This document shows positions 26,128 to 42,274 of a DNA stretch of 42,560 nt, piece after piece. Source of the DNA: Dehalococcoidales bacterium (lineage in GTDB: Bacteria > Chloroflexota > Dehalococcoidia > Dehalococcoidales > UBA5760); contig JAQUOC010000001.1 of NCBI GenBank assembly GCA_028717305.1, positions 1 to 42,560 on the forward strand, read 5' to 3'. How positions within the stretch are numbered: position 1 is the first letter of the stretch; every line of letters starts with the position of its first letter. The notes under the pieces were generated by a model, which worked only from the letters and a program-made list of their open reading frames with translations, searched no databases and was not told where the DNA came from. The position numbers were made by a program, and so were the translations under genes.

Positions 26128-26167
26128 GCTCATAAACGGCAAAACAGATTTGGGAGGAAAAGGTATC

Positions 26168-27687: not shown

Positions 27688-29076
27688 ATGAACAGAAGAG
27701 AATATATAGCTAGTATAGTGGTTACTATGGCAGGCATAATGGCCTTGTTAATTGCGGGTGTGCTTTTCCAGGAGAAGGGAGCTACAACTGCCGCGGAGCA
27801 GCATCTTCGTCCGAAAGAATGGACGGACGAAACTCACGGTAATGGTGTAGAACCGAACTATGAAATTGTTTTCCCTCAAGATAAGGTTAATCAGATGAAG
27901 ATCACTATTGCTCCGAATGATTGGGAAGCAATGCAGGCAGATCTGACCGAGCTATTAGGTACCCGTGGAACCGGACGCCAAGTTAACGTGAAACCGGAGA
28001 ATCTTATCTGGGTCCCGGCTACCATCGAATTCAACGGCTTGATTTGGAACCACGTTGGTATCCGCTATAAAGGCGCCTCAACACTTATAGACAGCTGGGG
28101 CGGGGGCATGCGGAAAATACCTTTAAGATTCAACTCCGATAAGTTTGAGGATAAATATCCTGAAATCACAAACCAGCGGTTCTACGGCTTCAAGAAGCTG
28201 ACGATGGCAAATTCCATGTTTGACAGCAGTTATATGCGTGACATAATTGCGGCCGACCTTCTGGCAGAGGCAGGGCTGCCAGTTGCCCGGACTGCGTATT
28301 ATGAAATCATCATGGACTATGGTGAAGGTCCGGTTGACTTTGGTTTGTATGTGGTAATAGAGAGCATCGAGGATACAGTCATCGAGCGTTATTTTGGTGA
28401 TAAGTCCGGGAATATCTACAAGCCAGAAGGTGGTGGGGCCAGCCTGGCAGAGGGCACATTCGGTTGGATTCAGCACGGCTTCGTAAAGAAAAACAACGAG
28501 ATCGAGGCCGACTGGAGTGACATCGAAACTCTGTACAACTTACTCCACTCGGAAGGACGCATCTCGGATCCTGAAGCTTGGCGGGAAAGCCTGGAATCGA
28601 TATTCAACGTAGACGTCTTCCTTGAGTGGCTGGCCATCAGTACTATCATCCAGCACTGGGATAGCTATGGTGTCATGCCGAATAATTTCTACCTCTATAA
28701 TGATCCTGACACCGGTCTGCTTACCTGGATATCCTGGGACCACGATGTTATCTTAGGCATCGGTGACGAGATGATAAGCGACGCGTCTCTGGGAAAGAAG
28801 GAGATAGGTCAGGACTGGCCGCTGATTCGCTACCTGCTGGATGATCCAACCTACTACGACCGATACCTGGATTATATTAATGAAACTATTAATGGGCCGT
28901 TCGATCCGGGCAAACTGGAGGTGAAGTGCCGGGCATTGGCGGAATTGATCAACCCTTATGTTGTCGAAGAATCAAGTGAGGCTGCCTTCAACTGGGCTGT
29001 CAAGCAATTGATTGACCGTATTCACTCGCGTTATGAGGTAGCAATTGATTTTCTTACTGATGAGAGAGGCGGTTAA
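27688..29076 (+). CDS. CotH-family protein (atypical kinase fold) with N-terminal membrane anchor
   Basis: 462 aa. N-terminal hydrophobic segment IASIVVTMAGIMALLIAGVLF. CotH-like blocks (KKLTMANSMFDSSYMRD, NFYLYNDPDTGLLTWISWDHD). Confidence 0.78.
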   Translation: MNRREYIASIVVTMAGIMALLIAGVLFQEKGATTAAEQHLRPKEWTDETHGNGVEPNYEIVFPQDKVNQMKITIAPNDWEAMQADLTELLGTRGTGRQVNVKPENLIWVPATIEFNGLIWNHVGIRYKGASTLIDSWGGGMRKIPLRFNSDKFEDKYPEITNQRFYGFKKLTMANSMFDSSYMRDIIAADLLAEAGLPVARTAYYEIIMDYGEGPVDFGLYVVIESIEDTVIERYFGDKSGNIYKPEGGGASLAEGTFGWIQHGFVKKNNEIEADWSDIETLYNLLHSEGRISDPEAWRESLESIFNVDVFLEWLAISTIIQHWDSYGVMPNNFYLYNDPDTGLLTWISWDHDVILGIGDEMISDASLGKKEIGQDWPLIRYLLDDPTYYDRYLDYINETINGPFDPGKLEVKCRALAELINPYVVEESSEAAFNWAVKQLIDRIHSRYEVAIDFLTDERGG

Positions 29077-29077
29077 G

Positions 29078-29857
29078 ATGACGACTCAAGTATATGATGG
29101 TGTGTTGGCTGATAATATCGACGTATTGCCAGAGAGGTTTGAGCGTAAATATTACTTGGTAGCTGGAGAAGTCGGCTTAGCTTACGGTCTTCTACGCCAT
29201 CTTTGTCTTTCGGCCAGTGAGTATCCCTCCGAGCAGATAAACAGTCTTTACTTTGATACGGCCGGACTGGAACAGCATGAAAGGTCTGCTGCCGGTGACT
29301 ATAACAAAGATAAGGTACGTATCCGTTGGTATGGTGAGGATAATGATATCAGTGGAATGCGTAATGTGTTCATTGAACTGAAATCAAGGCGGGGTTTTAC
29401 CAGTACCAAGCAACGGCTAAAGTTATCTGTGTCAGCCATGAGTTTGAATCCGGGTAATCTTATCAGGGGTATTGTTCCCAGAACCCTGCTGATGGATACC
29501 CTGGCCAGATTTGGCTGTTTCCCGCACGAGATGCTTCATCCGGTAATCAAGATATCTTACTGGCGCCGTCGTTTTAGCGAGATTCTGACCGGGCAACGAG
29601 TTTCGCTTGATTGTCATATTCGTTCTTCGATGGTAATGCCGGGAAGAGGTAATGGTGAAAAGGAGCTAGAGTTACCCGGCGGTGTTATCGAGATTAAAGG
29701 ATTGGCTATGGATCTACCTCCCAGTTTAAGCCGAATGAGGATGTTATATTTAGATTGGACCAGATTCTCCAAGTATTCCTCATGTATCGATTCTCACCTT
29801 GAGGAGCCCGGATCTATGGGACGCCTGTCACCGTCAGGGAGAATAACCCAACTATAG
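29078..29857 (+). CDS. VTC-domain (polyphosphate-polymerase/triphosphate-tunnel-like) protein
   Basis: RFERKYYL..., INSLYFDT..., DKVRIRWYGE..., VFIELKSRRG...K.R. matches the bacterial VTC domain pattern. The ATG at 29078 lies 1 nt after the cotH stop. Confidence 0.72.
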   Translation: MTTQVYDGVLADNIDVLPERFERKYYLVAGEVGLAYGLLRHLCLSASEYPSEQINSLYFDTAGLEQHERSAAGDYNKDKVRIRWYGEDNDISGMRNVFIELKSRRGFTSTKQRLKLSVSAMSLNPGNLIRGIVPRTLLMDTLARFGCFPHEMLHPVIKISYWRRRFSEILTGQRVSLDCHIRSSMVMPGRGNGEKELELPGGVIEIKGLAMDLPPSLSRMRMLYLDWTRFSKYSSCIDSHLEEPGSMGRLSPSGRITQL

Positions 29858-29896
29858 TCAGATATGATAACATGGTAATACTATTAGGAGGAATAA

Positions 29897-30556
29897 ATGC
29901 CAGAAGGATTTGATCTATTTGCTTCCTTACCGGAGATGAAAGAAACCATTATACCCCTCGGATTCTCCGTGCTGGGTGCTGTCATTACCTATTTAGTATA
30001 TAATCTGTTTTATGGTTCAAGTCATATCGGGGCCGGTGTACATCGTACCTTTCTTGTCGGTGGCCCCGTTATCACAATGATATTCCTGGTTATCCAAACC
30101 TCTATACCACTCGGTCTTGGACTGCTCGGAGCGCTTGCCATAGTGCGTTTCCGAACGCCGGTAAAAGATCCGGCCGAGATAGGATTCTTGCTTCTGTTGA
30201 TTGCTTCCTCACTTGGAGCCGCTACCAGTAACTACCTGATAACTGCTTTAATGTTTATTATTGTCTTTGCTGCTCTAGGGGTACATAGGTTAATAAGCAA
30301 TCGGATTACTCTCTTGGGAAGAGGACATCTGATGATCGCTGTTGACCGAGGTACTTTTCCATCAATAGAGAAGAAACTGATGGCCTTACTCTCGGAGAAG
30401 CTTCGAGGCTTGAATCTGGAGACTATATCCACGATTGATAATCGGGTTAGCTTAAATTATCAATACAAACGTCGGGCAGATTTCGACTGGTCGGCTTTTA
30501 TAAATGAGTTAAACCAGCTTGCAGGGGGGCCGGGGATTGAGATTTTCGTGAGCTAA
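29897..30556 (+). CDS. DUF4956 membrane protein
   Basis: Multi-TM protein with the block GALAIVRFRTPVKDPAEIGFLLLLIASSLGAA, characteristic of DUF4956. AGGAGG precedes the ATG. Confidence 0.72.
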   Translation: MPEGFDLFASLPEMKETIIPLGFSVLGAVITYLVYNLFYGSSHIGAGVHRTFLVGGPVITMIFLVIQTSIPLGLGLLGALAIVRFRTPVKDPAEIGFLLLLIASSLGAATSNYLITALMFIIVFAALGVHRLISNRITLLGRGHLMIAVDRGTFPSIEKKLMALLSEKLRGLNLETISTIDNRVSLNYQYKRRADFDWSAFINELNQLAGGPGIEIFVS

Positions 30557-30794: not shown

Positions 30795-30823
30795 TTGACT
30801 AATTCGATGGCTCATGTTACGAT
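30795..30823 (+). promoter_or_regulatory. putative promoter of the DUF134 operon (-35 TTGACT, 17 nt, -10 TACGAT)
   Basis: Hexamers at 30795-30800 and 30818-30823. The -10 overlaps the left edge of the 30-bp palindrome. Confidence 0.35.
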
Positions 30824-30851
30824 TATTAATGAGCATATGCTCATTAATAAT
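30822..30851. promoter_or_regulatory. perfect 30-bp palindrome, candidate operator
   Basis: ATTATTAATGAGCAT|ATGCTCATTAATAAT; I verified base by base that it equals its own reverse complement. It ends 14 nt before the DUF134 start codon, with GGAGG at 30856-30860. Confidence 0.75.
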
Positions 30852-30865
30852 GGGTGGAGGACTAG

Positions 30866-31360
30866 ATGACCAGACCGCCACGGCCGAGACGAATCGGTTT
30901 TGTGCCGGATGTAACCTACTTTAAGCCGGCAGGAATACCTTTGAGGTTTATGGAAGAGGTATGCGTATCAATGGAAGAGGTAGAGGCATTACGTCTGAAG
31001 GATCTGGGGGGCCTAGACCAGGAGGCCAGTGCGGTCAAGATGAATATATCACGTCCCACGTTTCAGAGAGTCCTTGCCTCAGCCCGGCAAAAGATTGCCG
31101 ATGCTCTCTTAAACGGTAAAGCGATAAGAATTGAGGGGGGTAACTTTGAAATAGCGGCGCTTCGCTTACGATGTGTTAACGGGCACGAATGGAATCTGCC
31201 TCCTGAGGCAACGGCTAATACTCCACTCCAGCTCTGCCCTACCTGTAACACGCCGAATATCGTTAATTACCATAACCCTCAGTTGGTGCAGGCACATCGC
31301 GGCAGGCATCGCAGAGGGAGATATAACCGTGAAATAACGGGGGACCTTGAATTGGAATGA
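30866..31360 (+). CDS. DUF134/UPF0251 (COG1342) predicted DNA-binding protein with C-terminal Cys/His extension
   Basis: PRPRRIGFVPDVTYFKPAGIPL...EEVEALRLKDLGGLDQEASAVKMNISRPTFQRVLASARQKIADAL is the family signature. The extension carries C-x4-H...CPTC. Confidence 0.8.
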   Translation: MTRPPRPRRIGFVPDVTYFKPAGIPLRFMEEVCVSMEEVEALRLKDLGGLDQEASAVKMNISRPTFQRVLASARQKIADALLNGKAIRIEGGNFEIAALRLRCVNGHEWNLPPEATANTPLQLCPTCNTPNIVNYHNPQLVQAHRGRHRRGRYNREITGDLELE

Positions 31361-32079
31361 AGATTCTTGATGATTTGATTTCAGTACTCAATACGGAAGT
31401 CGAGTTGAAAGATATTCGGCAGGGATTCTTTCACACCGCGGTTTTGACCGATCGTTGCGGCCTGGCGGCTACTCTACCGAAAGATGTGATAAAGCAGGAT
31501 AACCCCTGGGTGGAGGAACCCGGATTTTTACTTAACAAGAGCGTTTCGGAGGTTGTGAAAATGGCCTATTCCGAAAGGCTCCTTGAGGCTTCTATTGGAA
31601 TGGCAGCTATCAATTCACTTCTTGAAATTGATGAGAACCGCTGTGAAGATTTGAATGCCGGTGATCTCATCGCTGAAAAAGGACAGGGGAAAAGGATAAC
31701 CATTGTAGGCCATTTCCCATTTATACCAAAACTACGGGAGGTGGCAAGCATCCTCTGGGTAATCGAAAAGAACCCTGAGGAAGGAGACGCTAGCGAATCC
31801 GAAACCGGAAACTGTATTCCCCGGTCCGATGTGGTAGGTATTACCGGGACTGCTTTTACCAACCACACTATCGAAAGTTTACTGAAGATGTGCCGCCCGG
31901 GAGCATATGTGGTAATACTGGGGGATACCGCACCTCTATCGCCGTTACTATTTGATTACGGTATAAGTGCTATATCGGGCACGAAGGTAGTTGATCCGGC
32001 ACTGACTTTGAGATGTATTAGCCAGGGTGCAAACTACCGGCAGATCAAGGGGGTCAGGAAACTCACCATGGTGAGGTGA
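31357..32079 (+). CDS. DUF4213/DUF364 protein (Rossmann-like, putative metal-chelation family)
   Basis: 240 aa. N-terminus ...DIRQGFFHTAVLTDRCGLAATL, then ITIVGHFPFIPKL... Its start overlaps the DUF134 stop in ATGA (31357-31360). Confidence 0.65.
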   Translation: MKILDDLISVLNTEVELKDIRQGFFHTAVLTDRCGLAATLPKDVIKQDNPWVEEPGFLLNKSVSEVVKMAYSERLLEASIGMAAINSLLEIDENRCEDLNAGDLIAEKGQGKRITIVGHFPFIPKLREVASILWVIEKNPEEGDASESETGNCIPRSDVVGITGTAFTNHTIESLLKMCRPGAYVVILGDTAPLSPLLFDYGISAISGTKVVDPALTLRCISQGANYRQIKGVRKLTMVR

Positions 32080-32080
32080 G

Positions 32081-32554
32081 ATGATGGTAAACCAACTAGC
32101 TAAGGCACAACATAACATGGGTGATGGGTTAGGCCAGCGTAGTACAGGGCAGCGCCAGTTGATTCTAAAGATCATTCAGAGGTCTAACAAGTATCTTTAT
32201 GCTGATCAAATCTACGAAAAGGCCCGACAAGAATTACCCGGTATCAGTCTGTCTACAGTGTACCGTAATCTTCAGCTGTTTAGAGATTGGGGTATTGTTG
32301 CAAAGCATCAGTTTGATGGTAAGCGGTGGAGTTACGAAAGCGCTGCTAAATCAAAGCATCAACACATGGTGTGTTTAGGCTGTGGCAGAGTGTTCCCGTT
32401 CCAGTGTCCATTAGCCGAGAGTATCCAGGCCAGGATAGGTGCAGAGGCAGGTTTTAAGGTGACTGATGCCAATGTCCATCTGACCGGCTACTGCCCGGAT
32501 TGTCAACAGAGGCTGATTGGTAATGACGGCAGTGTCAAAGAGGATAGTGATTAA
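32081..32554 (+). CDS. Fur-family metalloregulator
   Basis: The DNA-binding helix ISLSTVYRNLQLFRDWGIV, HQHMVCLGCGRVFPF and LTGYCPDCQ give a CxxC...CxxC structural zinc site. The ATG is 1 nt after the preceding stop. Confidence 0.85.
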   Translation: MMVNQLAKAQHNMGDGLGQRSTGQRQLILKIIQRSNKYLYADQIYEKARQELPGISLSTVYRNLQLFRDWGIVAKHQFDGKRWSYESAAKSKHQHMVCLGCGRVFPFQCPLAESIQARIGAEAGFKVTDANVHLTGYCPDCQQRLIGNDGSVKEDSD

Positions 32555-32629
32555 ATTGATGAGAATATTGTGATCAATGCACATTTCCCCGGTGGTACCG
32601 GAAATAGATTTTTAACAAGGAGGTGGAAT

Positions 32630-32986
32630 ATGGGTAACGGTTTTGGTGGTGGAAGGATAGCCGGACGTGGTCTTGGAGGTGGCATGGGTTTTGGTTTTCG
32701 GGGAAGCTCTCCTCCCTGGCCCTATGTCGGCATAGGAAGAGGTGGGCTGCCGAGACACGCCTATTTTTTCTCTGGTGCGGCCGCTGCGCCGGCTTTCTAT
32801 CCCCAAAGATTCGTAGCAGGACAGGGTTACGGTGTAGGGGCGTCGGGTTTTAGCAGCTATCCTTACGCTTCAGGACTATCTCCGGAGCAAGAGATTGATT
32901 CTCTAAGGAACCAGGCTGAAACGATTAGCGAGCAACTGGAGCAGATTGGGAAGCGGATTCATGATTTAGAAAGCGAGAAGCAATAA
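32630..32986 (+). CDS. DUF5320-type Gly-rich protein with C-terminal coiled coil (paralogue 1)
   Basis: MGNGFGGGRIAGRGLGGGMGFGFRG... and C-terminal SPEQEIDSLRNQAETISEQLEQIGKRIHDLESEKQ. AGGAGG precedes the ATG at 32630; the track start at 32570 was trimmed. Confidence 0.68.
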   Translation: MGNGFGGGRIAGRGLGGGMGFGFRGSSPPWPYVGIGRGGLPRHAYFFSGAAAAPAFYPQRFVAGQGYGVGASGFSSYPYASGLSPEQEIDSLRNQAETISEQLEQIGKRIHDLESEKQ

Positions 32987-33008
32987 ATACTTATTAAGGA
33001 GGTGTACT

Positions 33009-33287
33009 ATGCCAGGATTTGATGGAACCGGCCCACGCGGAATGGGTCCGATGACAGGAGGGGGACGAGGTTTCTGCAGCCCATGGGGAATAGGAACAGC
33101 CTATCGCTCGTATGGTGTCGCTCCCAGGGTCGGCTACGGCTATCGGGCAGGGTTGGGATTTAATCCCTATTTCCCCAGCATGACTAAGGAGCAGGAGATT
33201 GATTTCCTGAAGAACCAGGCTCAGGCTATGAAGGGTCAATTGGAGCAAATAGAAGCCAGGATTCAGCAGCTCGATAGCAAGGCTTAA
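33009..33287 (+). CDS. DUF5320 protein (paralogue 2)
   Basis: MPGFDGTGPRGMGPMTGGGRGFC... and TKEQEIDFLKNQAQAMKGQLEQIEARIQQLDSKA. AGGAGG precedes the ATG. Confidence 0.75.
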   Translation: MPGFDGTGPRGMGPMTGGGRGFCSPWGIGTAYRSYGVAPRVGYGYRAGLGFNPYFPSMTKEQEIDFLKNQAQAMKGQLEQIEARIQQLDSKA

Positions 33288-33326
33288 ATGCTGCTTTGAA
33301 TCACTAATGTCAAAAAGGAGTAAATC

Positions 33327-33995
33327 GTGCGAATTGCTATTACAGCTACAGGGCCAACCCTGGATGCTGAAGTGGATCCTCGCTTTGGTCGTTGCCAATA
33401 CTTCATCATCGTTGATCCCGAAACATTGACCTTCGAGGCTATAGAAAACGCTAGCGCCTCTGCACCCGGTGGGGCTGGTGTTTCCACCGGGCAAATGATT
33501 GCCAGTAAAGGAGTAACAGCAGTCCTCACCGGAAACTGCGGTCCCAATGCCTATCAGGTTTTGTCTGCTGCCGGAGTACAGGTGTTAACCGGGGTTTCAG
33601 GAAAGATAAAGGATAACATCGAGGAATATAAGTTGGGTACTTTTGCTGCCGCTAAACAGGCTAATGTGGCTGATCATTTTGGTATGAGCTATGGCGGAAG
33701 TACCAGCGGTAGCACGGCCCCGGGTGCTAACATCGGAGAAGGTATAGGAATAGGCCAGGGTATGGGCCGTGGTATGGGTCGAGGTATGGGAATGGGCCGG
33801 GGTATGGGTAAGGGTCGGGGCATGGGGATGGGTTATGGTATGGGAGGTGGCGTGTCACCTTTATCTTCACCCTCACCTCAACCATTAGACCTGCATCAGG
33901 AGATTGAAATGCTTAAGTCCCAATCCCGGGTAATGGTCCAGCAGCTAGCTGAGATCCAGCGCCATATTAATGATTTGGAAAAGAAACAGAAATAG
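33327..33995 (+). CDS. NifX/NifB-C-type (dinitrogenase FeMo-cofactor-binding fold, COG1433) domain fused to a Gly-Met-Arg repeat and DUF5320-type coiled coil
   Basis: MRIAITATGPTLDAEVDPRFGRCQYFIIVD...GVTAVLTGNCGPNAYQVL (NifX-like), then GMGRGMGRGMGMGRGMGKGRGMGMGYGMGGG, then LHQEIEMLKSQSRVMVQQLAEIQRHINDLEKKQK. GTG start after AGGAG. Confidence 0.8.
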   Translation: MRIAITATGPTLDAEVDPRFGRCQYFIIVDPETLTFEAIENASASAPGGAGVSTGQMIASKGVTAVLTGNCGPNAYQVLSAAGVQVLTGVSGKIKDNIEEYKLGTFAAAKQANVADHFGMSYGGSTSGSTAPGANIGEGIGIGQGMGRGMGRGMGMGRGMGKGRGMGMGYGMGGGVSPLSSPSPQPLDLHQEIEMLKSQSRVMVQQLAEIQRHINDLEKKQK

Positions 33996-34021
33996 AAAAT
34001 CTATGAGATGGAGGTTTAGTT

Positions 34022-34252
34022 ATGCCAAGAGGAGATAGAACCGGTCCGCCCGGAGGCGGTGGCCCAGGTAGTGGCAGAGGTATCGGTAGAGGAGGAGGAG
34101 GTGGCGGCAGGATGGGAGGCAGTCGTCCCGGGGCTGGTCCCGGTGGCGATTGTATCTGCCCCAGTTGTAGGGCGCGGCTACCCCATTCAGCGGGGACACC
34201 GTGTTACAACTTAACCTGTCCTAAGTGCGGAGCGAAGATGGTGAGAGGATAG
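34022..34252 (+). CDS. DUF5320-like Gly/Arg-rich N-terminus fused to a CxxC...CxxC zinc ribbon
   Basis: MPRGDRTGPPGGGGPGSGRGIGRGGGGGGRMGG... then CICPSCRARLPHSAGTPCYNLTCPKCGAKM. Its stop abuts the next start (TAGATG). Confidence 0.55.
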   Translation: MPRGDRTGPPGGGGPGSGRGIGRGGGGGGRMGGSRPGAGPGGDCICPSCRARLPHSAGTPCYNLTCPKCGAKMVRG

Positions 34253-35092
34253 ATGATCGTATCGGTAGCGAGTGGTAAAGGGGGAACGGGCAAGACCCTG
34301 GTGGCAACCAGCCTTGCCCTTTCCCTGAAAGATAAACATGATGTGCAGCTTCTTGATTGTGACGTAGAGGAACCTGACGATCATATTTTCATGAAGCCGA
34401 GCATTACAAGTAGTGAAGTAGTCTCCATTCCGGTACCTCAGGTGGATGAGGCAAGATGTACTTACTGCGGTAAATGCGCCGAGGTGTGCGCCTATAACGC
34501 TATCGCCGTGATAACGGATAAGGTGCTTGTTTTTCCTGAACTTTGTCATGGCTGCGGCGCTTGTAGTTACCTCTGTCCTGAGAATGCTATTAAGGAGGTG
34601 GGGAAAGAGATAGGCATCGTGGAGTCGGGTAATGCTGATGGCGTGAAATTCGTTCACGGTAAGCTTTCCATTGGTCAACCTATGGCACCGCCTATTATCA
34701 GAAAAGTTAAAGAGAAAGCTAACAAACAGGGGGTAGTAATTATCGACTCATCCCCGGGTACGTCCTGTCCGGTGGTAGAAGCCATCAGGGGAAGTGACTT
34801 CTGCTTGCTGGTAACCGAACCCACCCCCTTTGGACTAAACGACCTTAAACTGGCTGTTGAAACAGTGAGGAAGCTTGACATACCCTTTGGCATAATCCTC
34901 AACCGTACCGGTGTTGGCGACAATAAAACAGAGGAATACTGCCGCAAAGAGAACATACCAATTCTGATGAAAATACCGCTGGATACCAAAATAGCCCGGC
35001 TTTATTCTCAGGGTATTCCGCTGGTTAAAGGGATTCCTGAGTTCAGGAATGACTTCCTGGGTCTTTTTGACAAGATAGGAGATAACACATGA
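34253..35092 (+). CDS. MinD-superfamily P-loop ATPase with inserted 2x[4Fe-4S] ferredoxin domain (COG1149), copy 1
   Basis: Deviant Walker A SGKGGTGKT, then CTYCGKCAEVCAYNAI and CHGCGACSYLCPENAI, then IIDSSPG. Confidence 0.85.
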   Translation: MIVSVASGKGGTGKTLVATSLALSLKDKHDVQLLDCDVEEPDDHIFMKPSITSSEVVSIPVPQVDEARCTYCGKCAEVCAYNAIAVITDKVLVFPELCHGCGACSYLCPENAIKEVGKEIGIVESGNADGVKFVHGKLSIGQPMAPPIIRKVKEKANKQGVVIIDSSPGTSCPVVEAIRGSDFCLLVTEPTPFGLNDLKLAVETVRKLDIPFGIILNRTGVGDNKTEEYCRKENIPILMKIPLDTKIARLYSQGIPLVKGIPEFRNDFLGLFDKIGDNT

Positions 35093-35961
35093 AGGAACTT
35101 GTGGTACTTAGTGGTAAGGGGGGAACGGGAAAGACCAGTATTGTTGGCTCGTTAGCAGCTATAGCTCAAAATAAAATAATGGCCGACTGTGACGTCGATG
35201 CCGCTGACTTACATCTGCTGCTTGACCCTACGGTTAAAGAAGAATATGAGTTTTGGAGCGGCCGAGTTGCCGTTATCGATGAGGAGAAATGCATCCAGTG
35301 CGGTTTGTGCCAGGATCTGTGCCGTTTCGACGCTATTTCTGACACTATTGATTATTTCAAGATTGACCCGATTGCCTGTGAAGGCTGCAGCTTCTGCTCA
35401 CATCTATGCCCGGTCGAAGCGATTTCTATGGAAGACAACCTGTCTGGATATTGGTTTGTATCGGATACCAGGTACGGACCGCTGGTCAATGCTCGCTTAG
35501 GCATCGCCCAGGAGAATTCCGGCAAACTGGTAGCGCTGGTCAGGCAGCAAGCCAGGAAGATCGCTGAGAATAATAAACTTGACTATATCATCAGTGATGG
35601 CCCGCCCGGTATCGGCTGTCCGGTTATTTCATCATTGTCCGGTGCCAGCCTGGCGCTTCTGATCACCGAACCGACACTGTCAGGGATACACGACTTAGAG
35701 AGAGTACTTCAGGTCTGCAATCACTTTGGCGTGCCTTCTCTAACCTGTATTAATAAGTATGATCTTAACGAGGATAATACGAAAAATATCGAAGATTACT
35801 GCCTGAAACAGGGAGTAGCCGTGGTTGCCAAGATACCCTTTGATAATGTGGTTACCGAATCTATTGTGCAAGGAGTGCCGGTGGTTGAATATTCCGAAGG
35901 CCGGGTTGCCGTTGAGATAAGAGGCCTTTGGCAATGTATAACTGAGACGCTGGCATCATAG
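35089..35961 (+). CDS. MinD-superfamily P-loop ATPase with inserted 2x[4Fe-4S] ferredoxin domain (COG1149), copy 2
   Basis: SGKGGTGKT, CIQCGLCQDLCRFDAI, CEGCSFCSHLCPVEAI, ISDGPPGIGCP. ATGA overlap with copy 1 (35089-35092). Confidence 0.85.
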   Translation: MKELVVLSGKGGTGKTSIVGSLAAIAQNKIMADCDVDAADLHLLLDPTVKEEYEFWSGRVAVIDEEKCIQCGLCQDLCRFDAISDTIDYFKIDPIACEGCSFCSHLCPVEAISMEDNLSGYWFVSDTRYGPLVNARLGIAQENSGKLVALVRQQARKIAENNKLDYIISDGPPGIGCPVISSLSGASLALLITEPTLSGIHDLERVLQVCNHFGVPSLTCINKYDLNEDNTKNIEDYCLKQGVAVVAKIPFDNVVTESIVQGVPVVEYSEGRVAVEIRGLWQCITETLAS

Positions 35962-36008
35962 TGACTAAGTGATAGGGTATTTTAGAAAATATTTAAGGGG
36001 AATGAAAG

Positions 36009-36191
36009 TTGCCACTCTATGAATATGAATGCCATAAATGTGGTGAGAGGTTTGAGTTAAGGCGGAATATATCTGATAACGATGGTGAGATAAGATGCCC
36101 GGAGTGTGGAGCCCCAGATATCCGCCGAAGGTTGTCCATTTTTGCCGCTCCATCTTCGAGCGGATCATGTGGGACCAGTAGCCCTACCTGA
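36009..36191 (+). CDS. FmdB-family zinc ribbon (CxxC_CxxC_SSSS type)
   Basis: MPLYEYECHKCGERFE...IRCPECGAPDIRRRLS...SSSGSCG. TTG start. Confidence 0.7.
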   Translation: MPLYEYECHKCGERFELRRNISDNDGEIRCPECGAPDIRRRLSIFAAPSSSGSCGTSSPT

Positions 36192-36250
36192 AATGTGAGG
36201 TTATGAGGCAGTCTGTCTCATACCAAATTATCCCGAAGGAGGATAAATTA

Positions 36251-36487
36251 ATGCCTATTTATGACTTCAAGTGTCGAGAATGCGGTAAGATCTCGGAGAT
36301 ACTGCTCCGCAATAACAACGAGGCTATTCGCTGCGCAAATTGTGGTAGCAGCGATCTCGAGAAGCTTATATCGGCATCTTGCGTCATTAAGAACTATTCC
36401 TCCACTTCTGGTGTTACCTGCTGTGGTAAAGAAGAACGTTGTGAAGCACCACCTTGTTCCACAGGGAATAGGTGTCGGAGAGATTAG
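36251..36487 (+). CDS. FmdB-family zinc ribbon with Cys-rich tail
   Basis: MPIYDFKCRECGKISE...IRCANCGSSDLEKLIS... with the tail CCGKEERCEAPPCSTGNRC. AGGAGG precedes the ATG at 36251; the track start at 36203 was trimmed. Confidence 0.7.
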   Translation: MPIYDFKCRECGKISEILLRNNNEAIRCANCGSSDLEKLISASCVIKNYSSTSGVTCCGKEERCEAPPCSTGNRCRRD

Positions 36488-36536
36488 TAACAACATAGGG
36501 TGTATTTATATGAATACTTATAAGGGAGGTTCATCG

Positions 36537-36875
36537 GTGAAGTATGCAGTACCTGTGAGCGGTGGCATGTTGTCAGCACATTTTGGCCACTGTGAGCAAT
36601 TTGCCTTGATTGACGTTGATGAGGTGAATAAGAAGATTCTGAATAAGAAGATAGTCAATTCACCGGGGCACGAGCCAGGATTACTTCCTAAATGGTTGGC
36701 TCAACAGGGCGTTAATTTGATTATTACTGGCGGTATGGGCATCAGAGCCCAGAACCTCTTTCAGCAAAACAGAATCGGAGTTATCGTCGGTGTCGTTGAA
36801 AATGATCCAGATAAAGCGGTAATTGATTATCTAAACGGCACTCTTACCAAAGGGAATAACATATGTGACCATTAA
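36537..36875 (+). CDS. NifX/NifB-C-type FeMo-cofactor-binding-fold protein (COG1433), stand-alone
   Basis: KYAVPVSGGMLSAHFGHCEQFALIDVD...GVNLIITGGMGIRAQNLF. The GTG at 36537 lies 7 nt after GGGAGG; the ATG at 36510 is an alternative. The 204-aa track ORF starting at 36261 is an artefact that overlaps the FmdB gene. Confidence 0.78.
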   Translation: MKYAVPVSGGMLSAHFGHCEQFALIDVDEVNKKILNKKIVNSPGHEPGLLPKWLAQQGVNLIITGGMGIRAQNLFQQNRIGVIVGVVENDPDKAVIDYLNGTLTKGNNICDH

Positions 36876-37023
36876 GCATCATGGTATGTGCTAGATTCCG
36901 AATCAGCGAAACTCTGTGACGAGGGAAACATTGAGCGTTATGCTGTCGGGATTTTGGTCATCTGGAAAAGTCATTCCCCGGCTCGTTTCGGAGAAGATCA
37001 ATTAATACGGGAGACCATCCTAT

Positions 37024-37485
37024 ATGAAGTGTGAATGGGAAAAATTCAGAACATCTACGGAAGAAGAGAAGAAGAAACTCTACTCAGTAATAGCCTTTAA
37101 ACGCGCCACCGAGCCGAAAAATCGGGGTGATATTAAGGATGCTGATGGTTATGCCATTCTAACCGGACCTTGCGGTGATACTATGGAAATTTGGCTTAAG
37201 GTTAATAATGACCTCATCATCAATGCTACGTTTATGACTGATGGTTGCGGGAACTCTATCGCTTCCTGTAGTACAGTAACCGAAATGGTCAAGGGTAAGA
37301 GTATTGCTGAAGTTCAACAGATTACACAACGAGATGTCCTTAGCGATTTAGGTGGATTGCCCAGGGAAGGTGAACACTGCGCTCTTCTGGCGGTAAATAC
37401 ACTCAAAGAAGCGCTTAATGATTACACTCATCGAAATACCAAAATAAGCAATCATGAAACGATTGTTGGGAAAATAATAGCTTGA
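37024..37485 (+). CDS. IscU/NifU N-terminal-like Fe-S scaffold protein
   Basis: Three scaffold cysteines in the expected contexts: TGPCGDTMEIWL, TDGCGNSIASCS, GEHCALLAVNTLKEAL. Confidence 0.8.
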   Translation: MKCEWEKFRTSTEEEKKKLYSVIAFKRATEPKNRGDIKDADGYAILTGPCGDTMEIWLKVNNDLIINATFMTDGCGNSIASCSTVTEMVKGKSIAEVQQITQRDVLSDLGGLPREGEHCALLAVNTLKEALNDYTHRNTKISNHETIVGKIIA

Positions 37486-37515: not shown

Positions 37516-38412
37516 ATGAATAATCCTGAAATCTATGTTATGAATAACAAAATACGCTGGAATAGTCAGCCTTTAGACATGTGGCGAACTAAATATGCCT
37601 CCGGGAAATTCATCGATCTGGACGGTCATTTGACTCATTATGTAGATAAGGGCGAGGGACATCCGGTTATTTTATTGCATGGCTGGTTTCACGATTCCCA
37701 GATGTGGAACAAGAATATCAATGTCATTGCCCAGGAGTTCAAAGTGTACGCCATTGATCTCTGGGGTTTTGGCTACAGCACTCGCGAGATTATGGACTGG
37801 GGTTATCAATTATATGCGCATCAACTGGAAGCCTTTATAGAGAAGCTTGGAATTAAGCAGGCATCTCTGGTGGGACAATCCTTTGGTGCTGGGATCTCTA
37901 TCTTGTTTTGCACTCAGCATCCTGAAATGGTCAGTAAGCTCGCTCTTGTTTCACCAGCAGGATTACCTAACTCGTCATCGTTAGGCGAGACGGAGTTACA
38001 AAGAGCCCTAAAACAGCTTGTGTTGAATGATGAGGAATCCCGGCGATTATTACTGGAGACGATGTTTATTCACGATAGCGGCTCCATTTCCGAAGATTGG
38101 TTCCATGAGCTAACCCGTTTTCATGAAATAGAAGGAACAAACGAAGTCTTGCTAGGCAACCTAAAAAACAATTTCTTTGACGGACTTTCCAGAGAAATTG
38201 AAGAGCTGGGTGAAATAGATGTTCCGACTCTTTTGATCTGGGGGCTTCACGATAAGTCTATTAATCCTGAGCGGGGAATTAAGATGCACCGTATTCTGAA
38301 GAATTCACAGTTGGAGATTTTTAAGAAATCCGCACACTGTGCCAACTATGAAGAACCTGAAAAGTTTAACAGAATAATCATGCGTTTTCTCAAGAAAGAT
38401 CATCATTGCTGA
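37516..38412 (+). CDS. alpha/beta-fold hydrolase
   Basis: HG oxyanion motif (LLHGWFHDS), nucleophile elbow GQSFGAG, and a C-terminal His (SAHCANYEEPEKF). Confidence 0.8.
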   Translation: MNNPEIYVMNNKIRWNSQPLDMWRTKYASGKFIDLDGHLTHYVDKGEGHPVILLHGWFHDSQMWNKNINVIAQEFKVYAIDLWGFGYSTREIMDWGYQLYAHQLEAFIEKLGIKQASLVGQSFGAGISILFCTQHPEMVSKLALVSPAGLPNSSSLGETELQRALKQLVLNDEESRRLLLETMFIHDSGSISEDWFHELTRFHEIEGTNEVLLGNLKNNFFDGLSREIEELGEIDVPTLLIWGLHDKSINPERGIKMHRILKNSQLEIFKKSAHCANYEEPEKFNRIIMRFLKKDHHC

Positions 38413-38452
38413 AAACGATGTCAGGACGGTAAATAATATAGGAGTAAAAACA

Positions 38453-39427
38453 TTGATGTCAATAGCGTACGGACCAGTTCCATCCCGAAGACTAGGGCGC
38501 AGTCTAGGAATAAACAATATACCCCCTAAAATCTGTAGTTATTCCTGCATATACTGTCAGCTGGGGAAGACCTTGAAGGTTGAAGTTGAACGTAGAGCTT
38601 TCTATCAGCCAAAAGAGATTGCTGGGGCTGTAGAAGCCAGGGTCAATCAGGGCAGAGCAAATGGTGAGGCAATTGACTATCTGACTTTTGTTCCTGATGG
38701 AGAACCGACCCTGGATATTAATCTCGGCGAGGTTATAGAACTGCTAAGACCATTGGGTATTAAGATAGCCGTTATTACTAACTCCTCACTTATATCCCGT
38801 CAGGACGTTAGAAATGATTTGCAGAAAGCTGATTATGTATCGTTGAAGGTGGATGCAGTTACCCAAGACCGATGGCGCAGAATTAACCGTCCTCATAAAC
38901 TACTAAACTTTAACGGTGTTTTAGGCGGTATGCTTACCTTCGCCAGTAACTTTAAGGGTAAACTTACCACCGAAACCATGCTTATCCAGGGTATCAACGA
39001 TGAAAGGGAAGAAATCTATAGGATAGCCGATTTTACTAAGGAGTTGGAGCCAGATGTGGCCTATCTGGCCATCCCAACAAGGCCAGTAGCAAACCGGGCG
39101 ACTAAGGCTGCCGGTGAAGAAGATATCAATATGGCATATCAAATTTTCAAAGAAAAACTGAGTGGTGTGGAATATCTGATTGGTTATGAGGGAGACGCCT
39201 TTTCATTTACGGGTAATATTGAAGACGATTTGCTCAGCATCACTTCGGTACACCCAATGAGAGTGGACGCCGTAAAGGAACTTCTGAAGAAGGCTAATAG
39301 CGGATGGGAGACTATCGATAGGTTAATCGGGGCTGGTCGTCTTGTGGAACTAGAATATAACGGAAAGAGATTCTACATGAGGAAGCTGCCTAACACCGGG
39401 TCTATGAAATTGAACGTAGATGTATAA
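38453..39427 (+). CDS. radical SAM protein (COG0731-like)
   Basis: GPVPSRRLGRSLGINNIPPKICSYSCIYCQLG gives CxxxCxxC, followed by a GEPTL block. Confidence 0.8.
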   Translation: MMSIAYGPVPSRRLGRSLGINNIPPKICSYSCIYCQLGKTLKVEVERRAFYQPKEIAGAVEARVNQGRANGEAIDYLTFVPDGEPTLDINLGEVIELLRPLGIKIAVITNSSLISRQDVRNDLQKADYVSLKVDAVTQDRWRRINRPHKLLNFNGVLGGMLTFASNFKGKLTTETMLIQGINDEREEIYRIADFTKELEPDVAYLAIPTRPVANRATKAAGEEDINMAYQIFKEKLSGVEYLIGYEGDAFSFTGNIEDDLLSITSVHPMRVDAVKELLKKANSGWETIDRLIGAGRLVELEYNGKRFYMRKLPNTGSMKLNVDV

Positions 39428-39495
39428 CAGAGAATACTTTTCTCAGAATAAAGAAGAGTCGGCGTTTATCCAATAATTAGTATAATAGGTTTTAG

Positions 39496-40176
39496 ATGGA
39501 GCATAACATACTAGGCGGGGAAACAGACCTTGATGCTAAGGCTATAGCTTTCAACAGTTTAGCTAGAGAGTACGACTTGTGGTTTGAGAATGAAGGGAAG
39601 CTGATCTTTGATATTGAAGTACGTGCTTTTCAGGAGATCATGCTGTCGTTACCCCCTCCCTGGTTAGAGATAGGCGTGGGCAGCGGCCGTTTTGCCCGAG
39701 CCCTGGGAATCCAAAAGGGAATTGATCCCTCTAGCGAACTACTGAAAATTGCACAAAGCCGGGGAATAGATACTTGCTTAAGCAGCGGCGAAAGGTGTCC
39801 TTTTCAGCAGAACTCGTTCGGCACGGTATTCATAATAGTCACTCTCTGCTTTGTCGATTCACCCCGGCTCGTTTTGAAGGAGTCTCACCGTATCTTAGCT
39901 CCAGGAGGCAATGTAGTACTTGGATTAGTCCTAAGGGAAAGCTCCTGGGGCAAATTCTATGAACGAAAGAAGCAGGCGGAACATCGTTTCTACAAACACG
40001 CCACCTTTTACAGGTACAACGAGGTTGTAACTCTGCTAACACAAGCGGGTTTCTCAGTTAAAAAGGTCATTTCGACGTTGTTTCAGAGACCCCAAGAGTT
40101 AAGAGATATTGAGTTTCCGAGTGAGGGCTATGATCCCGATGCCGGATTTACCATAATTAACGCTGTCAGGAAATAG
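39496..40176 (+). CDS. class I SAM-dependent methyltransferase
   Basis: Motif I WLEIGVGSGRFARAL, plus LAPGGNVVLG. Confidence 0.75.
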   Translation: MEHNILGGETDLDAKAIAFNSLAREYDLWFENEGKLIFDIEVRAFQEIMLSLPPPWLEIGVGSGRFARALGIQKGIDPSSELLKIAQSRGIDTCLSSGERCPFQQNSFGTVFIIVTLCFVDSPRLVLKESHRILAPGGNVVLGLVLRESSWGKFYERKKQAEHRFYKHATFYRYNEVVTLLTQAGFSVKKVISTLFQRPQELRDIEFPSEGYDPDAGFTIINAVRK

Positions 40177-40199
40177 CATGTTGGTGAGATTAATCTGTA

Positions 40200-40883
40200 A
40201 TGAATCGACGCGGCGCTGAAAATAAGATGGAGTCAAATAAACAGGGAGATAAGCATAACTTTCAGGAATACGCAATTGTCGCTTGCGGTACGCTCAGTAT
40301 GGAATTGAAATATCTTAAGGATAGCGGTTTTCTTAATGCCGGAAAAATTCTCTATACCAAACCGGGTCTTCACCAGTTACCGCATGAACTGGAGAGCCAG
40401 TTAATACGACAAATAAATACTGCTCAGAGCTATGCCTCAAATATCATCGTAGTCTACGGTAGTAAGTTCTGCTACGTGAATACCGATGATCCATACCGGA
40501 GTATAGATACCATAATTGAGGAGCAATTTACACCCGGCATTAAAATCAGCAGGATAAAAGCGGATCATTGTATTGATATGCTTGCCAGTGCTGAAGATAG
40601 GGAACGCATAGCTCAGGGTAGAGACGTGTACTGGATGACGTCAGGATGGCTGAAATACCGGCACTATGTTTATCAGGGATGGGACAAAGGGCTAGCTAAC
40701 GAAAATTTCCCCAAACACTCTGGTGGTGCCATTATTCTGGATGCCACCGGTTTCTTTGATCACCTTATGGGAAATAATCCCGAAGAGATATTGGACTTAT
40801 CCGACTGGATGGGGATTCCTATAGAGTCGCATAAGATTACTCTGGACAGAATGAAATGTTTACTAATAGGAGCAATAGAATAA
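40200..40883 (+). CDS. DUF1638 domain protein
   Basis: The pattern AIVACGTLSMELKYL...LHQLPHELESQL...IIVVYGSKFC matches my memory of DUF1638. The start could instead be the ATG at 40227. Confidence 0.55.
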   Translation: MNRRGAENKMESNKQGDKHNFQEYAIVACGTLSMELKYLKDSGFLNAGKILYTKPGLHQLPHELESQLIRQINTAQSYASNIIVVYGSKFCYVNTDDPYRSIDTIIEEQFTPGIKISRIKADHCIDMLASAEDRERIAQGRDVYWMTSGWLKYRHYVYQGWDKGLANENFPKHSGGAIILDATGFFDHLMGNNPEEILDLSDWMGIPIESHKITLDRMKCLLIGAIE

Positions 40884-41042: not shown

Positions 41043-41333
41043 ATGGTCAGCTTTGAGGAAATTGAGAAAGCGCGAAAGCTGCTGGGTCTTGGTGAAGCAG
41101 CCAGTCTCAAAGAAATAAAGGCCGCTTACCGTAATCTGGCCCGTCGTTATCATCCTGATAAAGCCGGGGAGAATGAGAGCGAACAAGAGATGATGAGAGA
41201 AATCAATCGGGCGTATGAGTTGCTTGAAGAGTACTGCAAAAAGTATAAATATAGCTTTACAAAAAAGGCCTTTGCCAGGGCATATCCTCAAGAGGCGTAT
41301 ATTGAGTGGTGGTTTGAAAACTGGAGAATGTAG
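41043..41333 (+). CDS. minimal J-domain protein
   Basis: LKEIKAAYRNLARRYHPDKAG...INRAYELL contains the HPD tripeptide. It is only 96 aa, with no G/F or zinc-finger region. Confidence 0.75.
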   Translation: MVSFEEIEKARKLLGLGEAASLKEIKAAYRNLARRYHPDKAGENESEQEMMREINRAYELLEEYCKKYKYSFTKKAFARAYPQEAYIEWWFENWRM

Positions 41334-41404: not shown

Positions 41405-42274
41405 TTGATATTGCAAACCTATCTTGATTGCATTCCCTGCCTTTTGACTCAGGCTCTCAGAGCGGCGAGAGCAACTACTGACGATGTAAGTATCCACCGC
41501 AGAGTAATAGATTCGGTTGCGGGAATGGTCCCCCGGCTTTCACTGGACTTGCGACCGCCTGAGATTGCTCAGCAGTTTTACCGCTTAATCTCTAACATAA
41601 CCGGTGACGCTGACCCTTTCCGGGAAGCAAAAATTGAAGCTAATCGTGCTGCGCTATCCCGATACACGAATCTTAAGAAGATAGTTGCCGATACCGAAGA
41701 TCCCTTGTTTACTGCCTGTAAACTGGCTATTGCCGGTAATTCTATGGACTTCGGTAATAGCTTTGGGGAATTAAAAATTGATGAGATTATTGACAATGGC
41801 TTGAGCTCTCATATTGCCGTCAATGATTACGACCGGTTCAGGGAGTGTATTTCGCGTTCTCAAACCGTTATTTACCTCGGGGACAACGCCGGTGAAATTT
41901 TGTTCGATCGGTTGTTGATTGAGGAAATTCTTAGAATTAAGCATCTGGATATAGTCTTTGTCGTCAGGGAGAAGCCTATCATTAACGATGTTACTATAGA
42001 TGACGCCTGCATGACCGGTATGGATAAAATAGCCAGAATCATCGCCAACGGTTCGGACGCCCCGGCGACCATCCTGTCTCAGTGTTCTCCCGAAATGTTG
42101 AGCCTCTACTATTCTGCCGATATGATAATTTCAAAGGGACAGGGTAACTATGAGTCTCTCAACGAAGACAGTAAAAGTATGTTCTTCCTCTTGAGAGCTA
42201 AGTGCCGGCTCATAGCAGACATGCTGAGAGTGAAAATCGGTGACCACATTCTTAAGTATGATTCGGTGCATTAA
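41405..42274 (+). CDS. DUF89 / ARMT1-like damage-control phosphatase family protein
   Basis: CIPCLLTQAL..., YLGDNAGEILFD, ISKGQGNYESL blocks. TTG start. Confidence 0.78.
   Translation: MILQTYLDCIPCLLTQALRAARATTDDVSIHRRVIDSVAGMVPRLSLDLRPPEIAQQFYRLISNITGDADPFREAKIEANRAALSRYTNLKKIVADTEDPLFTACKLAIAGNSMDFGNSFGELKIDEIIDNGLSSHIAVNDYDRFRECISRSQTVIYLGDNAGEILFDRLLIEEILRIKHLDIVFVVREKPIINDVTIDDACMTGMDKIARIIANGSDAPATILSQCSPEMLSLYYSADMIISKGQGNYESLNEDSKSMFFLLRAKCRLIADMLRVKIGDHILKYDSVH

Follow-up and report, generated by a model that had tools for sequence, protein, structure and literature searches.

A stretch of 42,560 nucleotides from a Dehalococcoidales bacterium (GenBank assembly GCA_028717305.1, contig JAQUOC010000001.1, positions 1 to 42,560 of the forward strand), which we refer to as the window, contains a block of 13 co-directional open reading frames (ORFs) on its + strand at 30866-37485. 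Judged from its sequence, the block belongs to the ORP (orange protein) system found in strict anaerobes, of which it is an expanded version from Dehalococcoidales. ORP has been in the literature since 2011 and, because the block is orthologous to the Desulfovibrio ORP system, the module is one that is already named and partly characterised. A sequence-only reading of the same DNA had said that these genes have no experimentally assigned function, which does not stand now that they are seen to be orthologues of the published Desulfovibrio module. It had also named a published functional assignment as something that would refute it, and this applies in part: the ORP complex, the transfer of Fe-S clusters and the regulator OrpR are all published, though those papers still call the function unclear. 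The tight packing that it described agrees with the ORF listing: neighbouring genes share 4 nt at 31357-31360 and again at 35089-35092, 1 nt separates those at the 32079/32081 junction, and those at 34252/34253 abut. Profile searches with Pfam likewise support its family calls, with the start codons of three genes amended and one DUF5320 call falling below threshold. The proteins encoded by the block are as follows.

30866-31360, + strand: DUF134 (UPF0251) helix-turn-helix protein (Pfam PF02001, E = 2e-23)
31357-32079, + strand: DUF4213/DUF364 protein, with enolase-N-like and Rossmann-like folds (Pfam, E = 1.5e-14 and 1.6e-34)
32081-32554, + strand: Fur-family regulator with two CxxC pairs (Pfam FUR, E = 1.4e-32)
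32630-32986 (listed ORF from 32570), + strand: DUF5320-like protein a (Pfam, E = 4e-4, sub-threshold)
33009-33287, + strand: DUF5320 protein b, with an N-terminal MPGFDGTGPRGMGPMTGGGRG motif and a C-terminal coiled coil (Pfam, E = 1.9e-20)
33327-33995, + strand: ORP-like (Orp8-like) NifX-fold domain, (GRGM)n repeats and a DUF5320 coiled-coil tail (Pfam)
34022-34252, + strand: small Gly-rich Cys6-His ribbon protein, CxCPxC..H..PC..CPxCG (no Pfam family)
34253-35092, + strand: MinD-type ATPase A with an inserted 2x[4Fe-4S] ferredoxin module of the Orp3/Orp4 type (Pfam CbiA/ParA and two Fer4)
35089-35961, + strand: MinD-type ATPase B with the same ferredoxin insert (Pfam CbiA/ParA and two Fer4; 32% identical to A)
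36009-36191, + strand: FmdB-type zinc ribbon 1 (Pfam Zn_ribbon_8, E = 3e-16)
36251-36487, + strand: FmdB-type zinc ribbon 2 with a Cys-rich tail (Pfam Zn_ribbon_8, E = 3.5e-12)
36537-36875, + strand: second NifX-like protein (Pfam Nitro_FeMo-Co, E = 3.6e-20)
37024-37485, + strand: IscU/NifU-type Fe-S scaffold (Pfam NifU_N, E = 1e-29)

Relationship to the Desulfovibrio ORP operons

The sequences used for the comparison were D. gigas ORP (PDB 2WFB) and a Desulfovibrio sp. X2 locus found via an ORP fragment, rather than the D. vulgaris proteins. Residues 2-93 of the 33327-33995 protein are ~49% identical to D. gigas ORP (2WFB) over 92 residues (E = 4e-21), which is its best match among the solved structures. 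The orp locus of Desulfovibrio sp. X2 encodes, in order, a sigma-54 activator, two Gly-rich small proteins, ORP, two MinD-ferredoxin ATPases, a second NifX-like protein and a receiver-like protein. The window proteins match those of X2 one-to-one, as reciprocal best hits in BLASTP, and in the same gene order.

ATPase A against the first X2 ATPase: 42% identity; 30% to the other paralogue (BLASTP)
ATPase B against the second X2 ATPase: 47% identity; 30% to the other paralogue (BLASTP)
ORP-like domain against X2 ORP: 38.5% identity; 22% to the other paralogue (BLASTP)
Second NifX-like protein against the X2 second NifX-like protein: 36% identity; the other paralogue gave no match at E ≤ 0.01 (BLASTP)

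The second NifX-like protein also aligns with positions 263-365 of the NCBIfam model NF041136 (MrpORP) at E = 3e-36, scoring 125 bits against a cut-off of 450 for that model. It is the predicted free-standing equivalent of the C-terminal 'Di-Nase' domain of MrpORP (Orp9). The remaining half of MrpORP, the Mrp/NBP35 ATPase, is not encoded in the window and is a separate gene in relatives. In two of these, L001 and L003, in which ATPase A is 75-81% identical to that of the window, the Mrp/NBP35 gene sits between those for the second NifX-like protein and NifU (8963-9967 and 11850-12854, respectively). At this position the window has only a 148-nt spacer (36875-37024), so the gene has been lost or moved.

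The named ORP operons with which the block was compared are those of D. vulgaris Hildenborough, D. alaskensis G20 and D. gigas (Orp3, Orp4, Orp5, Orp7, Orp8, Orp9/MrpORP and OrpR). In the Desulfovibrio literature two [4Fe-4S] ferredoxin motifs are described for each of Orp3 and Orp4, homology to the Mo-Cu-S orange protein for Orp8, and a fusion of Mrp/NBP35 to a NifX-like domain for Orp9/MrpORP. Orp3, Orp4 and Orp8 co-purify, and MrpORP hands them Fe-S clusters in vitro (PMC6345978). Transcription of the operons depends on sigma-54, IHF and OrpR, an activator that senses redox state (PMC8359166, PMC3897727). No paper on ORP function later than 2021 turned up in our literature search, and a whole-word search found no paper on the function of DUF134, DUF5320 or COG1149.

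What the block shares with these operons is the ORP-type NifX-fold protein, the two adjacent, translationally coupled 2x[4Fe-4S] MinD-type ATPases, the NifX-like domain of the MrpORP C-terminal type, the small Cys-rich or Gly-rich proteins and the confinement to anaerobes. There are, however, clear differences. The sigma-54 activator OrpR is missing, there being no Sigma54_activat protein among the window ORFs scanned with Pfam (the large ones and several small ones), and in its place are a sigma-70-like promoter, a candidate DUF134 operator and a Fur protein encoded within the cluster. In the window the ORP domain continues into Gly/Arg/Met repeats and a DUF5320 coiled coil. Besides two more DUF5320 genes, the block has genes for DUF364 and for an IscU-type scaffold, and it ends in a tail that includes J-domain, radical SAM, methyltransferase and ARMT1-like genes. 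All of this lies in one co-directional block, whereas the Desulfovibrio genes form two divergent operons.

The CxxCxxCxxxC(A/P/R) motifs of the ferredoxin module can be read directly in the translations of both ATPases, which each have eight ferredoxin cysteines and a deviant Walker A motif, GKGGTGKT. An alignment of 28 diverse sequences revealed two further conserved cysteines in both paralogues (Cys36 and Cys172 in A), of which the one in a DCD motif is present in at least 90% of the sequences and the one in an (S/G)CP motif is invariant. These two might together make up a metal site at the subunit boundary, as the analogy with NifH, CooC and Mrp suggests. The ATPases resemble Mrp/NBP35/ApbC and NifH/BchL, also of the SIMIBI class, in the deviant Walker A motif (GKGGxGK[ST]), the ATP-dependent dimer fold and the Fe-S chemistry. 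They differ from them in carrying the ferredoxin insert, which follows the second beta strand, and in having neither the CxxC of Mrp nor the Cys97/Cys132 pattern of NifH, with cysteines in DCD and (S/G)CP instead. A Foldseek search with the model of ATPase A returned a generic SIMIBI fold, with ApbC as the top match, BchL and NifH listed, and archaeal MinD and FlhG among the top matches; it does not set the MinD, ApbC and NifH branches apart. Of the marks of a MinD division ATPase, which has MinC and MinE as partners and a membrane-targeting helix at its C-terminus, a terminal helix is predicted in the model at residues 263-276, and neither partner was found among the scanned window ORFs or the annotated recurrent neighbour families of the 82 loci. 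There is no solved structure of a MinD-ferredoxin fusion in the PDB.

The ORP-like protein consists of a Nitro_FeMo-Co domain (Pfam, E = 4.8e-24) and a DUF5320 tail (E = 4.8e-7). Three proteins of the block have this C-terminal coiled coil in common, in one case fused to the ORP domain via (GRGM)n. DUF5320-like protein a scores 22 bits against the Pfam threshold of 27, and aligns with its paralogues in L001 and L003; it has a Gly-rich N-terminal part and a C-terminal coiled coil, and it probably starts at the ATG at 32630 rather than at 32570. The N-terminal motif of the DUF5320 proteins is kept in 43 of 61 DUF5320 matches. The same motif, MPxGDGTGPxGxGPxTGRG (also written MPRGDGTGPxGxGPGTGRG), opens the 34022-34252 protein, where it is followed by a Gly-rich linker and then the Cys6-His ribbon. 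This protein belongs to a conserved family encoded directly upstream of ATPase A, with the full motif in at least 16 loci from several phyla. It is one of three Cys-rich candidates, along with 36009-36191 and 36251-36487, for Orp5/Dde_3197, the small Cys-rich [2Fe-2S] protein, and it may be the counterpart of this protein of the ORP operon.

For zinc ribbon 2 the start codon and ribosome-binding site place the start at the ATG at 36251, and the start of the second NifX-like gene was corrected to the GTG at 36537 from 36261. The scaffold has its three cluster cysteines and the Asp (GPCGD, DGCG and EHCA in the translation) and matches the NCBIfam model NifU_clost at E = 2e-32, which is below that model's cut-off. 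The DUF4213/DUF364 protein matches PDB 3L5O (E = 1.3e-18). For the 32081-32554 protein, Fur and PerR could not be separated with NCBIfam.

Distribution and control of the module

ATPase A has at least 8000 close homologues among clusters at 90% identity. At 50% identity, and with E of 1e-30 or better, the family comes to ~955 clusters, among them tandem A-B fusions of ~600 residues. A scan of one genome per species gave 80 loci, and the shares of each family were computed over 82 loci, from the co-directional chain around the ATPase anchor and with profiles built from the window proteins. Most of the shares are lower bounds because many contigs end early.

NifX-like: 90% of 82 loci, two or more copies in 70%
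Second ATPase: 85% of 82 loci
DUF5320: 54% of 82 loci
Mrp: 50% of 82 loci
FmdB-type ribbon: 41% of 82 loci
Gly-rich ribbon: up to 40% of 82 loci
NifU_N: 32% of 82 loci
Radical SAM: 22% of 82 loci
DUF134: 17% of 82 loci
DUF364: 13% of 82 loci
Fur: 11% of 82 loci

The bacterial loci come from Dehalococcoidia, Desulfobacterota, Syntrophobacterales, Clostridia, Omnitrophota, Zixibacteria, WOR-3, Ignavibacteria, Planctomycetota and Atribacteria, and the archaeal ones from Methanocellaceae, Methanophagales, Bathyarchaeia, Thermoplasmatota, Altiarchaeota and Thorarchaeota. The adjacency of the genes is not accidental: their order is kept in close relatives and the core recurs in 82 loci from many anaerobic phyla, which bears out the conservation of neighbourhood that the sequence-only reading had put forward as a check. 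Of 75 adjacent pairs of the two ATPases 70 have A before B, and in most of them the two genes overlap by 4 nt; this suggests that A and B form a heterodimer of long standing whose genes are translationally coupled.

When the remaining neighbours were clustered without prior choice of family, they added metallo-beta-lactamase-fold proteins (19 loci), sigma-54 activators (14, including the Desulfobacterales locus L040), ARMT1-like proteins (14), TrmO_N+CGGC proteins (13), receiver domains (9), pyridine-nucleotide disulfide oxidoreductases (7), FeoB-like proteins (5), DUF1847 (5), ArsP_2 (4) and DtxR-like proteins (4). In L003 an EncFtn-like (encapsulated-ferritin-like) gene (7734-7985) separates the small Gly-rich ribbon gene from that of ATPase A, and a CooT-like nickel chaperone (15440-15646) and an extra CbiA-type ATPase are encoded downstream.

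Two elements upstream of the DUF134 gene suggest how the block is controlled.

30795-30823, + strand: predicted sigma-70-like promoter, TTGACT, 17-nt spacer, TACGAT (consensus scan, 9/12 matches and a TG extension)
30822-30849, no strand: perfect 28-bp palindrome, TTATTAATGAGCAT followed by ATGCTCATTAATAA, candidate DUF134 operator (unique in the window, 0 expected by chance)

The palindrome is placed between the promoter and the ribosome-binding site of the DUF134 gene, and the same layout of -35, -10 and palindrome is found in relatives. The sequence-only reading had its block begin at 30822, a position that falls on the palindrome, which it does not mention. A scan of the window for promoters and terminators gave counts no higher than in shuffled sequence; we have used only the promoter abutting the palindrome, which has the support of the relatives.

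The core of the palindrome, ATGAGCATATGCTCAT, was searched for in the 1.14 Mb of the loci. At a threshold of at least 14/16 positions there were 13 matches against 0.27 expected. At 12/16 or better, and between -130 and +60 of the start, it was found at 17 of 21 DUF134 genes, compared with 13 of 749 controls and none of 11 Fur genes. It lies 17-36 nt upstream of the DUF134 starts in Chloroflexota, Zixibacteria, Ignavibacteria, Desulfobacterota and Smithella, and archaeal variants of the palindrome retain the CATATG centre. Some loci have the site upstream of other genes of the cluster (DUF364, FmdB, ATPases), and L003 has both the site and a DUF134 gene but no Fur gene. The enrichment upstream of DUF134 genes points to DUF134 as an autoregulator, and the position of the site, abutting or overlapping the -10 element, is typical of a repressor. 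It appears, from the comparison of these upstream regions, that DUF134 switches the block through the palindrome. The AlphaFold model of DUF134 has a confident three-helix core (residues 30-90), for which Foldseek finds matches to the DeoR DNA-binding domain and to sigma-70 region 4. Beyond this is a C-terminal extension, C..GHEW..CPxC, and then an Arg/Gly-rich tail. In 30 homologues C103, H107, E108, W109, C124 and C127 of the extension are invariant, and this conserved Cys/His domain is a candidate sensor site.

DUF134 and Fur are encoded in one cluster only in the window and its closest relative, L001, among the loci examined. No Fur box was found near the cluster in the window. The clusters that are led by a Fur gene have instead classical Fur boxes 20-31 nt upstream of that gene, overlapping the promoters (L018, L020, L022, L054 and L082, from Omnitrophota, Clostridia, WOR-3, Eubacteriales and Atribacteria), and in three of these five (L018, L022 and L082) there is a second Fur box upstream of a DUF5320 gene. 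Since the control elements differ in this way among the loci, the same module would seem to be wired to sigma-54/OrpR, to DUF134 or to Fur according to lineage. The palindrome at DUF134 genes, with Fur boxes in its place in Fur-led clusters, is what is new here; the literature search, which did not cover regulon databases exhaustively, found no publication on a DUF134 operator.

Possible roles of the module

It would seem reasonably likely that the block is a machine that handles metal-sulfur clusters, and not a nitrogenase accessory. This role is the best supported because neighbours linked to Fe-S clusters and iron recur around the module and because transfer of clusters has been published in vitro. 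The ligands of the scaffold are complete, there are Fur boxes at the Fur-led clusters, and FeoB, DtxR-like, CGGC-domain and DUF1847 proteins recur. The sequence-only reading had proposed a metal-regulated machine building a complex Fe-S or heterometal cofactor. A role with metal-sulfur clusters is the part of this that the context supports best, through the IscU-type scaffold, Mrp in the relatives, the Fur boxes and the FeoB and DtxR-like proteins; the building of a heterometal cofactor does not fare as well, with links to Mo or W sporadic.

A possible sequence of events can be outlined. By analogy with IscU-HscB-HscA, Fe-S clusters would be built on the IscU-type scaffold, and the J-domain protein and DnaK would aid their release. 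The co-elution of DVU2103 with DnaK (PMC3125180) fits the presence of a J-domain gene in these clusters. The block is similar to the ISC system in having an IscU-type scaffold with the full set of cluster ligands together with a J-domain protein, but it contains no IscS/NifS, HscA or IscA, and its 96-residue J-domain protein need not be HscB-like. From the scaffold the clusters would pass to the ATPase A/B heterodimer, which would have two [4Fe-4S] sites per subunit. In the relatives the separate Mrp/NBP35 protein would be at hand for this transfer, as MrpORP is in Desulfovibrio, where transfer to Orp3-Orp4-Orp8 was shown in vitro. ATP-driven closure of the A/B dimer may then move electrons or the cluster to or from the two NifX-fold carriers; closure is suggested by the deviant Walker A motif, which is that of ATPases dimerising with ATP (NifH, ApbC and MinD), and by the two extra cysteines of each subunit. 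Both carriers, one ORP-like and the other like the C-terminal domain of MrpORP, would hold a labile cluster that is bound non-covalently. More speculatively, the proteins with a DUF5320 coiled coil might act as tethers or adaptors, as might the tail of this kind on the ORP-like protein and the small Cys-rich proteins. Comparative genomics suggests that DUF134 would bind ATGAGCATATGCTCAT where it abuts the -10 element and repress its own operon, to which the Fur paralogue may add a metal or redox input.

Several points weigh against such a role in cluster handling. The locus and the clusters of the DUF134 type are known from their genes alone, and the model assigns no client protein or cofactor. 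The window contains neither a cysteine desulfurase nor the Mrp/NBP35 gene, though the latter is present in relatives. Foldseek places the ATPases no nearer to Fe-S carriers than to MinD/ParA, and the ferredoxin insert is of low confidence in the ATPase model. Only 16 of the 35 Gly-rich ribbon matches have the full motif, and some may be low-complexity sequence. The neighbourhood counts are conditional on the ATPase anchor and come from home-built profiles, not Pfam, and from contigs some of which end early. Finally, the authors of the Desulfovibrio work propose a role in cell division, yet call the function of ORP still unclear (PMC8359166).

According to this last proposal, first made for Desulfovibrio ORP, the two ATPases would be redox-sensitive MinD analogues that place the septum, with the other proteins as accessories. 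They do have the MinD/ParA fold, consistent with archaeal MinD and FlhG being among the top Foldseek matches, and D. vulgaris in which orpR was inactivated had morphological defects, while MrpORP was seen at the cell pole (PMC8359166, PMC6345978, PMC3897727). That phenotype is, however, one of a regulator mutant, and its authors call the link putative. No division gene is among the annotated recurrent neighbour families of the 82 loci (NifX-like, Mrp, NifU, Fur, FeoB, Cys-rich and radical SAM). The eight ferredoxin cysteines and two extra conserved cysteines of each subunit would also have no explanation if the ATPases served purely for positioning, and we think this role unlikely.

A role in the homeostasis, storage or detoxification of Mo or W (as thiometallate), in which the ORP-type carriers would sequester Mo/W-S(-Cu) and DUF364 would act as a chelator, also seems improbable. 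D. gigas ORP holds an [S2MoS2CuS2MoS2] cluster (cited in PMC6345978), and in M. maripaludis a DUF364 gene lies within the modABC operon and has a fitness pattern that follows nifH (bioRxiv 10.1101/2024.03.05.583561). L003 also has a MoCF_biosynth gene and a TOBE-domain ABC transporter divergently upstream. Against this, homologues of MoCF_biosynth turned up in three loci, always outside the co-directional chain, and ABC ATPases, which lie near 7 loci, are a heterogeneous set; for these reasons we rejected a link to Mo or W as the principal explanation. Only 13% of loci contain DUF364, FeoB and regulators of the iron type are commoner as neighbours, and there is no Mo or W gene among the scanned window ORFs. 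The only DUF364 protein that has been characterised enzymatically cyclises a derivative of S-adenosylmethionine (PMC12930334).

That the block flanks a conventional nif, anf or vnf cluster, with its NifX-like proteins serving the assembly of the nitrogenase cofactor, can practically be dismissed: although the Nitro_FeMo-Co domain is common to NifX, NafY and NifB, the best PDB match of the NifX-like domain is ORP and not NifX, and the sequence-only reading was right that the window is free of nitrogenase genes, with none of NifH, D, K, E, N and B among the scanned ORFs of the 42.5-kb window. A query with a hand-typed NifH sequence gave only weak P-loop matches to the ATPases in the 82 loci with flanks of up to 10 kb, so that no NifH was found within ~10 kb of any of them, and no nitrogenase-like family is among their annotated neighbour families. 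The carriers have the Nitro_FeMo-Co fold in common with NifX, NafY and the C-terminal domain of NifB, a fold in which a labile metal-sulfur cluster is bound non-covalently. They differ in the lack of a nitrogenase context, and no NifX or NafY of solved structure is as close to them in sequence as ORP, MTH1175 and TM1290 are.

Returning to the handling of metal-sulfur clusters, one more far-reaching reading joins three claims. DUF134 proteins would be metal- or cluster-sensing autorepressors that define, via ATGAGCATATGCTCAT, one ORP regulon in the anaerobes of both Bacteria and Archaea; the ORP module, of ancient origin, would work apart from Nif, Isc and Suf as an ATP-driven insertase for some metal-sulfur cofactor or client; and MPxGDGTGPxGxGPxTGRG would be the docking peptide of the module. 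We put the three together tentatively, and it is rather unlikely that they all hold.

Surroundings of the block and wider meaning

The limits given in the sequence-only reading hold for the thirteen genes, which do extend to 37485, but not for the block as a whole, as a run of genes continues on the same strand, with short gaps between them, from 37516 to at least 42274.

37516-38412, + strand: alpha/beta hydrolase (Pfam)
38453-39427, + strand: radical SAM protein (Pfam; for the family see the shares above)
39496-40176, + strand: methyltransferase (Pfam; methyltransferase in 13% of 82 loci)
40200-40883, + strand: DUF1638 protein (Pfam)
41043-41333, + strand: small J-domain protein, 96 residues, HPD motif (translation)
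41405-42274, + strand: ARMT1-like (DUF89) protein (Pfam, E = 5e-68; same family beside the cluster in 14 loci)

The order hydrolase, radical SAM, methyltransferase, DUF1638 is the same in the relatives L001 and L003, and both also have J-domain genes within their clusters, so that the tail is kept in close relatives. The genes at 37516-40883 may belong to the system.

Among the features considered and set aside was an antisense ORF of 166 codons at 32994-33494 on the - strand. It is most likely no gene, as two conserved genes lie opposite, that for a DUF5320 protein and the first part of the ORP-like one. Directly upstream of the block, and on the same strand, is a trio of CotH kinase-like, VTC-domain and DUF4956 genes (27688-30556); the VTC domain hints at polyphosphate, and the trio has no evident relation to the cluster. 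The remaining window ORFs that were scanned are housekeeping genes, such as those for GroES/EL, TsaD, HisF/H, SurE, purine salvage and an NrpR-like regulator. The last of these, with HTH_12 and NRD1_2 domains (6286-7281), is on the same strand as, and upstream of, HisF/HisH-type and glutamate-synthase-domain genes. NrpR is best known as the nitrogen repressor of methanogens. Between ~21500 and 27700 the G+C content drops from 0.51-0.56 to 0.41 in a gene-poor stretch that encodes an MscS-like channel and a LuxR-type response regulator. Weak matches to HesB/IscA-like proteins (Fe-S_biosyn) were seen in two small ORFs (24112-24405 on the - strand and 26150-26434 on the + strand). The protein at 13689-14471 (- strand) is of the acVLRF1/baeRF release-factor-like family of Actinobacteria and Chloroflexi. 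Rfam and tRNA scans found no RNA genes in the window.

What the analysis contributes is context and one regulatory prediction; it does not describe a new kind of system, nor does it fix the function. The version of ORP in the window is one with an unusually complete set of accessory genes and with a regulator that differs from the Desulfovibrio model. Equating the clusters of DUF134, DUF5320, NifX and MinD-ferredoxin genes with Desulfovibrio ORP ties an isolated literature to thousands of unannotated loci. The ORP module is among the most widespread anaerobe-specific clusters of unsettled function, being found in Dehalococcoidia, sulfate reducers, syntrophs, methanogens, anaerobic methanotrophic archaea (ANME) and Bathyarchaeia, among others. 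Handles on the signal that controls the system come from the operator predicted for DUF134 and from the Fur boxes that take its place in Fur-led clusters.

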